Shown one piece after another: positions 1 to 2,049 of a stretch of DNA of 2,537 nt. The stretch is from Escherichia coli (GTDB lineage Bacteria; Pseudomonadota; Gammaproteobacteria; Enterobacterales; Enterobacteriaceae): NCBI RefSeq assembly GCF_003334385.1, contig NZ_QOWN01000099.1. One strand, given 5' to 3'. The notes beneath the pieces were generated by a model. The model searched no databases and was not told the origin of the DNA. It was given only the letters and a program-made list of their open reading frames with translations. The number at the start of each line of letters is the position of its first letter. Position 1 is the first letter of the stretch. The position numbers and the translations under genes were made by a program.

Positions 1-1908
1 CGGACGCTGACGCTCGACCGTGAAATCACGCTGCCATCCTCCGGTACCACGCTGATAAGCCTGGTTGACGGAAGTGGCAATCCGGTCAGCGTGGAGGTTC
101 AGTCCGTCACCGACGGCGTGAAGGTAAAAGTGAGCCGTGTTCCTGAGGGTGTTGCTGAATACAGCGTGTGGGGGCTTAAGCTGCCGACGCTGCGCCAGCG
201 CCTGTTCCGCTGCGTGAGTATCCGTGAGAACGACGACGGCACGTATGCCATCACCGCCGTGCAGCATGTGCCGGAAAAAGAGGCCATCGTGGATAACGGG
301 GCGCACTTTGACGGCGAACAGAGTGGCACGGTGAATGGTGTCACGCCGCCAGCGGTGCAGCACCTGACCGCAGAAGTCACTGCAGACAGCGGGGAATATC
401 AGGTGCTGGCGCGATGGGACACACCGAAGGTGGTGAAGGGCGTGAGCTTTATGCTTCGCCTGACCGTGGCAGCGGACGACGGCAGTGAGCGGCTGGTCAG
501 CACGGCCCGGACGACAGAAACCACATACCGCTTCAGGCAGCTGGCGCTGGGGAACTACAGGCTGACAGTCCGGGCGGTAAATGCGTGGGGGCAGCAGGGC
601 GATCCGGCATCGGTATCGTTCCGGATTGCCGCACCGGCAGCGCCTGTCACTATTGAACTGATACCGGGGTATTTTCAGATAACGGCGGTCCCGAAACTGG
701 CTGTATATGACCCGACGGTGCAGTTTGAGTTCTGGTTCTCGGAAAAGCAAATTATTGATATCAGGCAGGTTGAAACCAGCGCGCGTTATCTTGGTACGGC
801 GCTGTACTGGATAGCCGCCAGTAGCAATATTAAGCCGGGTTATGATTATTACTTTTATATCCGCAGTGTGAACACCGTTGGCAAATCGGCATTCGTGGAG
901 GCTGTCGGTCGGGCGAGCGATGATGCGGAAGGTTACCTGGATTTTTTCAAAGACAAGATAACCGAATCTCATCTCGGCAAGGAGTTGCTGGAAAAAGTCG
1001 ACCTGACGGAGGATAACGCCAGCAGACTGGATGAGTTTTCGAAAGAGTGGAAGGACGCTAACGATAAATGGAATGCCATGTGGGGCGTCAAAATTGAGCA
1101 GACCAAAGACGGCAAACATTATGTCGCGGGTATTGGCCTCAGCATGGAGGACACGGAGGAAGGCAAGCTGAGCCAGTTTCTGGTTGCCGCTAACCGTATC
1201 GCGTTTATTGACCCGACAAACGGGAATGAAACGCCGATGTTTGTGGCGCAGGGCAATCAGATATTCATGAACGACGTGTTCCTGAAGCGCCTGACGGCCC
1301 CCACCATTACCAGCGGTGGCAGTCCTCCGGTATTTTCCCTGACATCAGACGGAAAGCTGACCGCTAAAAATGCGGATATCAGTGGCAGTGTGAATGCGAA
1401 CGCCGGGACGCTCAACAATGTCACGGTAAATGAAAACTGTACGATTAAGGGCATGCTGGAGGCGACTCAGGTCAGAGGTGACTTCGTTAAAGCTGTATCC
1501 AAATCATTTCCGAAACAGGCTGGTACGTGGGGTAATACGGAAACACCAAACGGGACGGTTACAGTCACCATCAGCGATGATCATAACTTTGACCGTCAAA
1601 TCATTATTCCGCCCATTATCTTTAACGGAATAGCGTATAGCGATCCGGGAAGTGGTAATAACCCGGGAGGTACAAGATACACGGGGTATGGTTTTGAAGT
1701 TCGCAAAAACGGTGTATTAATCGCATCCAGAGAAACTAAAGGGGCCATTCCCGGTAGCTACAGTGCGGTTATTGATATGCCGAGTGGCAGGGGAAGCGTC
1801 ACTCTGGAGTTTAAGGTTTTCCATAAAGGCAATCAGCGGGCAGGTAATATCACCGACTGTACGGTGATTGTGACCAAAAAAGCCGCTTCCGGCATCAGTA
1901 TTCGTTGA
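1..1908 (+). CDS. J: Phage tail-tip central fibre / host-specificity protein J, C-terminal ~636 codons (5'-partial; the gene starts upstream of the window)
   Basis: Frame +1 is open from nt 1 to the TGA at 1906-1908. The GTG at 91 reported by the ORF track is internal, since the frame has no stop upstream of it. The translation contains two fibronectin-III-like beta-sandwich segments (e.g. ...[27 protein letters not shown]... and ...[23 protein letters not shown]...). It also contains a segment (...[69 protein letters not shown]...[13 protein letters not shown]...) that I recognise as characteristic of lambda-family J proteins. It ends ...[10 protein letters not shown], whereas lambda J as I recall it ends ...KKQALGISVV. 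Its position immediately upstream of lom matches lambda genome order. Confidence 0.9.
346..915 (+). other. Two tandem fibronectin type III-like (Ig-like beta-sandwich) domains within J (approx. 346-630 and 631-915)
   Basis: Each ~95-aa segment has the alternating hydrophobic beta-strand pattern with a conserved Trp/Tyr core and ends with a Pro/Ala-rich linker ([12 protein letters not shown] at the first boundary). Boundaries are approximate and read by eye from the translation. Confidence 0.45.
1459..1908 (+). other. C-terminal receptor-binding domain of J (distal tip, host-range determinant); allele appears divergent from lambda
   Basis: In lambda-family J proteins the last ~150 aa form the receptor-binding domain. 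Here this segment (...[149 protein letters not shown]) keeps recognisable anchor motifs (DDHxFDRQI, IDMPxGRG, GIS at the terminus) but differs at most other positions from my recollection of lambda J. Hand-counted GC is ~46% in 1501-1620, against ~62% in 1-120. Confidence 0.5.
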
Positions 1909-1929
1909 AATTGTTATAACCCATATAAG

Positions 1930-1956
1930 GGCACCAGAAATGGTGCCTTTTTTATT
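1930..1956 (+). terminator. Rho-independent (intrinsic) terminator downstream of J
   Basis: Perfect 7-bp inverted repeat GGCACCA (1930-1936) / TGGTGCC (1941-1947) with a GAAA tetraloop (1937-1940), followed immediately by TTTTTTATT (1948-1956). It lies 22 nt after the J stop codon. Confidence 0.6.
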
Positions 1957-1966
1957 GCAGAAAAGC

Positions 1967-1972
1967 GAGAGG
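1967..1972 (+). promoter_or_regulatory. Shine-Dalgarno / ribosome-binding site for lom
   Basis: GAGAGG at 1967-1972, 5 nt upstream of the ATG at 1978; purine-rich and appropriately spaced. Confidence 0.6.
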
Positions 1973-1977
1973 TAATT

Positions 1978-2049
1978 ATGCGTAAACTTTATGCCGCCAT
2001 TTTTTCCGCAGCCATTTGTCTGGCCGTATCCGGTGCGCCTGCATGGGCA
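1978..2049 (+). other. Sec signal peptide of Lom (24 aa, predicted cleavage AWA|SE)
   Basis: N-terminal basic residues (MRK), a hydrophobic core ([14 protein letters not shown]) and an A-x-A signal-peptidase I site (PAWA) before the mature sequence SEHQ. Confidence 0.75.

Follow-up and report, generated by a model that had tools for sequence, protein, structure and literature searches.

The difference in host range between the coliphages lambda and 434 lies at the end of gene J and has been used in genetics for decades. In lambda, the tip of the J protein (gpJ) is an Ig-like trimer with four bottom loops that enter the receptor LamB, and this binding is relayed up the central fibre and opens the tail (PMC11101478). 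Phage 434, as well as lambda carrying the J gene of 434, uses OmpC as its receptor (PMC3509688; PMC11101478). The genome of a laboratory hybrid of the two phages, lambda h434 imm21, has been sequenced (PMC9119081), and Brodel et al. (Nature 2024, PMC11338833; PDB 9wca/9wcb) placed the C-terminus of prophage gpJ proteins on the lambda stem, choosing residue 964 as the insertion point, to obtain chimeras (A8 and 1A2) retargeted from LamB to OmpC. Here we analyse a stretch of 2,537 nucleotides of Escherichia coli DNA (contig NZ_QOWN01000099.1 of assembly GCF_003334385.1; referred to as the window) that holds the 3' part of a J gene followed by a lom-family gene. We find that a 434-type J tip and a common lom allele stand on a lambda-like J stem, and that this is a real mosaic junction, belonging to an already known and very widespread modularity of host range in lambdoid phages.

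All features discussed below are on the plus strand unless otherwise stated. Nucleotides 1-1908 encode the last 635 codons of J (frame +1, stop codon at 1906-1908, open at the left edge of the window). A Pfam search detected in this fragment, in order, the domains Ig_J (PF24421, residues 108-212), Ig_J_second (PF24489, 214-316), Phage_Tail_Tip (PF09327, 344-470) and Ig_GpJ_C (PF12421, 499-634), with E values from 2e-42 to 1e-25 (1.2e-25 for Ig_GpJ_C, the receptor-binding domain). The fragment therefore has the architecture of a lambda-type tip attachment protein, with FNIII-1, FNIII-2, the shaft and central fibre, and an Ig-like receptor-binding domain in this order. The stem (1-1401) corresponds to lambda J residues 503-969 and is made up of two FNIII/Ig domains, the alpha-helical shaft and the central straight fibre, while the C-terminal receptor-binding domain occupies 1446-1908. 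The fragment aligns with lambda gpJ of known structure (PDB 8iyk) over residues 503-1131, and with the NCBIfam profile lambda_TipJ (NF049904) over positions 503-1163; its score against this profile, 1091, is under the cut-off of 1950 because the cut-off refers to the whole protein and the window encodes only the C-terminal 635 residues. The N-terminal hub domains (about 500 residues) would lie upstream of the window, and are present in the 3414-nt J gene of the prophage of strain SCU-104, the nearest relative found.

We compared the window with the J-lom region of lambda (NC_001416, 17011-19585), using a 100-nt sliding window for the identity profile, the maximum chi-square test with 200 permutations for the breakpoints, and the Nei-Gojobori method for divergence at synonymous (dS) and nonsynonymous (dN) sites. 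A preliminary description of this DNA had proposed a sliding-window comparison with lambda, expecting a step between 1300 and 2000 rather than uniform identity, and the step is present. Identity stays at 91-100% to about nt 1400, bar a dip near 600-750, and at 40-65% afterwards, with no rise around 1900-2000. The single best breakpoint falls after nt 1445, with 94.3% identity on its left and 52.7% on its right (chi-square 596.8 versus a permutation maximum of 17.5), which agrees both with the left breakpoint that had been placed near 1400-1480 and with the divergence from lambda described for J downstream of it. Homology detectable by blastn covers nt 1-1464 (94.1%) and, beyond, two short pieces, at 2117-2175 (85%) and 2450-2537 (81%). 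By segments, the stem is 97.3% (1-600) and 95.0% (801-1401) identical to lambda at the nucleotide level, the tip (1446-1908) 49.8%, the J-lom intergenic region (1909-1977) 43.5%, and lom 46.8% (1978-2116) and 46.4% (2176-2449) on the two sides of the 59-nt island at 2117-2175.

The right-hand end of the divergent block is located far from where it had been predicted. A breakpoint at 1900-1960, with a return to lambda and a near-lambda lom behind it, had been proposed. A lom-family gene does start at the ATG at 1978, although it is not near-lambda, its identity being about 47% in nucleotides and 42% in protein, and the low identity of the intergenic region likewise contradicts a return at that point. 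In the right-hand part of the window the only significant change versus lambda is at 2449, where identity goes from 50% to 80% (chi-square 28.2 versus a permutation maximum of 17.9). This partial return, at about 2450, is followed by a sharp one at 2498, with 39 of 40 bases identical to lambda over 2498-2537 in the multiple alignment; a value of 92.7% for 2497-2537, obtained by global pairwise alignment, was discarded as an alignment end effect. The block unlike lambda thus spans about 1446-2497, or about 1.05 kb, and comprises the J tip, the spacer with its terminator and lom codons 1 to about 173.

Synonymous sites follow the same boundaries. Versus lambda, the stem shows a dS of 0.07-0.16 and a dN of 0.014-0.024, with a higher dS (0.43) in segment 601-800, which contains an embedded patch at 641-705 that is discussed below. 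The short segment 1402-1464 is intermediate (dN 0.22, dS 0.32). In the tip dS reaches 3.1, which is saturated, with a dN of 0.58, and lom 1978-2449 gives a dS of 1.5 and a dN of 0.60. The steps in identity are therefore abrupt, and divergence within the block is far above that of its flanks, synonymous and non-coding sites included, as mosaic exchange requires. Because saturated synonymous and non-coding divergence adjoins a near-identical stem, these data point to replacement by an anciently diverged allele rather than to locally fast evolution driven by selection. The relationship with lambda can be described as a common framework carrying a different insert. Shared are the stem (94-97%), the order of domains, the Ig-like fold family of the tip (PF12421), which aligns end to end with solved gpJ, the presence of an Ail/Lom gene after J, and the homologous lom 3' end and start of the side tail fibre gene stf. 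The lambda tip, which binds LamB, and the lambda Lom are only 49% and 42% identical to those of the window in protein, and about 1465-2449 is devoid of detectable nucleotide homology to lambda apart from the 59-nt island.

The tip in the window is of the 434 (h434) type, as indicated by its close identity to the C-terminal domain of 434 J. The last 185 residues of J are 95% identical to 434 J (10 of 185 residues differ), 100% identical to those of phage phi458 and the SCU-104 prophage, and 49% identical to lambda. By homology, the tip would be a trimeric Ig-like domain that terminates the central fibre, chooses the outer-membrane receptor and works as it does in lambda. Since it is 95% identical to 434 J, its receptor is most probably OmpC rather than the LamB of lambda. 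For prophages of this kind, receptor prediction should make use of the last ~150 codons of J and not of the likeness of the whole gene to lambda J. The tips of the engineered chimeras A8 and 1A2 both differ from that of the window, and an identity with either was ruled out by peptide and DNA searches of the supplements of that paper, which matched neither; A8 (PDB 9wca) can be aligned with the window tip (129 bits), though with many substitutions, and is more remotely related to it.

Phage 434 (OL657226) and the hybrid lambda h434 imm21 (OM418627) have J, the terminator and lom in the same order as the window. Over the whole window 434 is 94.6% identical in nucleotides, and it shares the boundaries of the window with respect to lambda, homology being lost after lambda 18474 and back at 19458. 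It differs in lacking the 641-705 patch and in about 1351-1800, the first two thirds of the tip counted from its N-terminal side, where identity is only 87-93%; past about nt 1800 identity is 99-100% up to the window end. The best break in this comparison is at nt 1794 (from about 90% to about 99%, chi-square 33 versus a permutation maximum of 18). Because of this jump at about nt 1800, the 434-type tip is seen to consist of at least two sub-alleles, recombining inside the receptor-binding domain.

The left junction coincides with a stretch of perfect identity. Nucleotides 1348-1401 (54 nt, 18 codons) are 100% identical to lambda, and 1363-1401 encode the 13 residues by which the preliminary description had recognized a lambda-like stem near 1370-1410. 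No base of the block varies among lambda, 434, Perceval, mEp460, phi458 and SCU-104, Evi has one change, and 36 consecutive bases of it (1366-1401) are identical also in phi330, the J stem of which is otherwise about 75-77% identical. It includes the position that corresponds to residue 964 of lambda gpJ, the insertion point of the engineered chimeras (PMC11338833). Minimal pairing segments of 23-27 bp for Red-beta and 31-34 bp for RecA have been quoted (PMC3945230), both shorter than this block, which is likely to be the crossover zone. Next to it, a transition ramp of 44 nt (1402-1445, 84.1% identical to lambda) encodes the final beta-strands of the central fibre and lies between the end of Phage_Tail_Tip (residue 470) and the start of Ig_GpJ_C (residue 499). 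In the laboratory hybrid lambda h434 imm21, the switch from lambda to 434 occurs at lambda 17620-17637, equivalent to window nt about 610-627 and within the J stem, and therefore crossovers in J homology give viable host-range hybrids. That recombination could make use of dedicated "linker" sequences is an old idea, reportedly part of the modular theory of Susskind and Botstein. The island at 1348-1401 is conserved even among J lineages with stems only about 75% identical, and one could think of its 36-54 nt as a maintained linker that lets receptor-binding cassettes swap between diverged tail genes, and not just as something left by recent exchange or by constraint on the protein. We regard this possibility as unlikely.

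A second junction becomes visible when the window is compared with other phages. Three of these, phi330, BP-4795 and an Stx2a phage, have a J stem that is 70-77% identical to the window and a tip devoid of nucleotide homology to it; identity then leaps to 93-95% from nt 1870-1876 and stays so through the spacer and lom. The alignment shows the jump most clearly immediately 3' of the J stop codon. A module boundary near nt 1870-1925, not far from the breakpoint proposed at 1900-1960, thus exists versus phi330, BP-4795 and Stx2a phages and not versus lambda, and the last ~12 codons of J (from about nt 1870) belong to the shared module downstream. It is against these phages, with limits at about 1445 and about 1870-1925, that the arrangement of conserved flanks and a swapped middle described earlier is found; against lambda it is not. 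Conversely, the window tip is found at 98-100% identity behind strongly differing J stems, as in phi458, Ayreon and an Stx2c phage. One tip therefore occurs with different stems and one lom with different tips, as expected of modules that assort independently.

The combination found in the window is by no means confined to it. The nearest relative is the SCU-104 prophage (NZ_CP053284, 1287136-1289672), 99.2% identical over the whole window, 641-705 patch included; in this prophage homology to lambda runs on past the window end for 1.1 kb (86% identity), reaching into the side tail fibre gene. Perceval, a prophage of LF82 (OV696612), is 96.9% identical overall and 99-100% from nt 1320 on, and differs by having a lambda-like sequence at 641-705. 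phi458 and Stx1a/Stx2c phages are 99.3-99.5% identical over 1400-1980, and a cdtI phage is also among the nearest relatives. At least 80% of the window is covered in 74 phage records and 2821 genomes. Among 5426 complete E. coli genomes, 2082 contain the tip plus spacer (1465-1977) with at least 80% of it covered; 352 records are at least 99% identical. The corresponding tip segment of lambda is found in 98 genomes, all at 99% or more, the laboratory strains K-12, BL21(DE3) and J53 being among the examples listed, and lambda lom is found in 21 phage records, all of lambda or very close relatives. The window tip is thus the prevalent allele in E. coli, while the lambda tip and lom are rare ones, so that the label "variant" that had been given to the tip has to be reversed.

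Taken together, we think it very probable that the window shows a lambdoid tail-tip locus of an ordinary kind, consisting of at least four exchangeable blocks that are shuffled by homologous recombination. The blocks would be a J stem of the lambda/434 lineage (1-1401), a 434-type C-terminal receptor-binding domain (about 1446-1869), a shared module joining the last codons of J to the terminator and lom (about 1870-2497), and the lom 3' end running into stf, which is common to lambda too (from 2498). With respect to lambda, the second and third blocks would amount to a single substitution of ~1.05 kb by an anciently diverged allele. Shuffling would most likely take place by homologous recombination in short conserved stretches, through Red-type functions of the phage or RecA functions of the host, during co-infection or infection of lysogens. 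Pairing would involve the 54-nt identical block at the left joint; at the right joint it would involve either the J-lom spacer or the conserved 3' end of lom. We infer this mechanism, and any direction of exchange, from the anatomy, breakpoints, divergence levels and distribution observed above. Module exchange by homologous recombination had already been suggested for this DNA, and as a general reading it is upheld by the identity steps, the contrast in dS, the presence of the tip behind different stems and the 54-nt block; the map drawn for its right side is not.

Could the tip have diverged on the spot from a lambda-like ancestor, under diversifying selection by the receptor and without any exchange of DNA? 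Positive selection is known to act on receptor-binding domains, and the dN of 0.58 in the tip is high. Yet the synonymous sites of the tip are saturated (dS 3.1, versus 0.07-0.16 in the adjoining stem) and the non-coding spacer and lom are as diverged as the tip. Furthermore, the identical tip is found behind very different stems, and different tips are found ahead of the same lom, which makes divergence in place extremely improbable. Even harder to sustain is that the window is an assembly chimera of two co-resident prophages, an explanation to which we give practically no credit. An E. coli genome does hold 2 J-like copies in the median and as many as 16, which invites mis-assembly, but the same contiguous layout is present in the complete genome of SCU-104, in Perceval, and in 434 and the hybrid, as well as in the 74 phage records and 2821 genomes mentioned above.

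A more serious alternative concerns how the joints arose. In a model attributed to Hendrix, block joints are said to come about by non-homologous recombination and to be retained by selection. Applied here, identity at the junction would reflect structurally constrained codons and not a substrate for crossovers. The left junction is indeed at a domain boundary (PF09327 ends at residue 470 and PF12421 starts at residue 499), where selection for functional chimeras would yield the same outcome, and the residues of the ramp are conserved at the protein level. Protein constraint does not account well, however, for a 54-nt block that is identical at synonymous positions across lineages, 36 nt of it even in phi330, with its stem of about 75% identity. 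In addition, the laboratory lambda x 434 hybrid came from a crossover inside J homology, and Red-mediated exchange between diverged lambdoid sequences has been shown by experiment (PMC3945230). An illegitimate origin thus appears improbable as the explanation of the locus; it is, besides, compatible with shuffling by homologous recombination, since it concerns the ancient origin of the joints and not their present spread.

Several points nevertheless weigh against our preferred reading of exchangeable blocks shuffled by homologous recombination. The recombination events themselves were not observed, their direction cannot be told, and lambda may be the recombinant. The first joints may have been formed by illegitimate recombination and spread later through flanking homology. 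The ramps (1402-1445 at 84%, and 2450-2497 at about 70%) blur the crossover points, and protein constraint could explain them. As to the receptor, the use of OmpC is extrapolated from 434 J, from which the tip differs at 10 of 185 residues, and related engineered gpJ tips are able to tell OmpC variants apart (PMC11338833). In the literature examined, which did not include two papers on Perceval/LF82, no receptor assignment was found for any phage with exactly the tip of the window. The locus carries little weight as a discovery, given that hybrid genomes have been sequenced (PMC9119081) and that the same junction has already been used for OmpC retargeting of lambda particles (PMC11338833). Its practical value is in the correction of annotations: in E. 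coli the tip and lom of the lambda "reference" are rare alleles, the 434-type tip is common, and lom assorts independently of the tip.

Downstream of J, the spacer contains an intrinsic terminator (1927-1956) with a 10-bp stem, a GAAA loop and a T run. The hairpin was picked up by a pattern scan and folds as RNA with -18.9 kcal/mol (z -2.2), and a terminator is annotated at the same site in 434, mEp460 and Ayreon. We compared window positions 1927-1950 with about 2450-2475 of the phi330, BP-4795 and Stx2a loci and found two compensatory pair changes in the stem, the form in the window and 434 being GGGCACCA...TGGTGCC and that in phi330, BP-4795 and Stx2a being GGGCGTCA...TGACGCC. Since two stem pairs change in a compensatory manner between spacer types, the sequences are consistent with a functional hairpin under selection. 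It was the only structured RNA detected in the window, which gave no Rfam match at E values up to 1. The lom gene follows, with a putative ribosome-binding site (GAGAGG, 1967-1972), read off the sequence, 5 nt ahead of the ATG; the equivalent site is annotated in 434. A promoter scan gave no sigma-70-like site for lom on the plus strand.

Codons 1 to about 173 of lom (1978-2497) belong to the common, non-lambda allele, and the right junction, where lambda homology is back, is at the 3' end of the gene (2498-2537), which then leaves the window. The product matches Ail_Lom (PF06316) with an E value of 6.9e-110 over profile positions 1-186 of 199, the last ~13 codons being beyond the window, and its N-terminus reads as a Sec-type signal sequence ending in AWA. 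With a profile match of essentially full length and a signal peptide, it is predicted to be an Ail/Lom beta-barrel outer-membrane protein. With a lom query (1978-2496), identity was 98-99% for Perceval and 434 and 95.6-97.1% for phi330 and BP-4795. By analogy with receptor-blocking genes located after tail genes, we considered an obligatory or functional linkage between tip and lom. This was ruled out because the same lom follows unrelated tips in phi330, BP-4795 and Stx2a phages; the lom allele of the window is found in 162 phage records, versus 74 for its tip. Searches with lambda lom also returned, with a 100% match, record MW057783.1 ("Campylobacter phage CJLB-4", listed host Campylobacter jejuni). 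Its J matches the window at 89.4%, as lambda does, so this record looks like lambda and not like a Campylobacter phage, possibly through laboratory contamination.

On a finer scale, the J gene is a patchwork of several divergence depths, as expected in lambdoid phages. The patch at 641-705 (65 nt), at the FNIII-1/FNIII-2 boundary, comes from another J allele: its identity is 67.7% to each of lambda, Perceval, 434 and Evi, and 68.6% to mEp460 over 642-711, versus 94-96% outside, and the log-likelihood ratios (LLR) are 19-27, where permutations reached about 10 at most. A query of 261 nt around it (600-860) was matched at 100% in the SCU-104 prophage and at 97.7% in O104:H4 and ST131 prophages, among others, with 198 records at 95-99%. 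The patch is thus a very short embedded exchange. In phi458 and Ayreon, a divergent block of shaft and fibre at about 950-1250 (53-65% identical) is flanked on both sides by more than 90% identity, which makes this alternative alpha-helical shaft and upper fibre a further sub-module of J open to exchange. Identity to the Stx2c phage is 52-69% over 1-250, and Perceval is 93.2% identical to nt 841 and 98.6% beyond. Even the SCU-104 prophage shows a step, from 99.8% to 96.9% (chi-square 43.7), 17 of its 21 mismatches being located after nt 1986 and 9 of the 21 within the first 70 nt of lom (1987-2049, the signal-peptide region), which suggests another recent exchange with a joint between 1510 and 1986. 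Finally, an open reading frame for 123 residues is present on the minus strand at 1717-2088, antisense to a region that reaches from the 3' end of J across the spacer into the 5' end of lom, and is most likely spurious.

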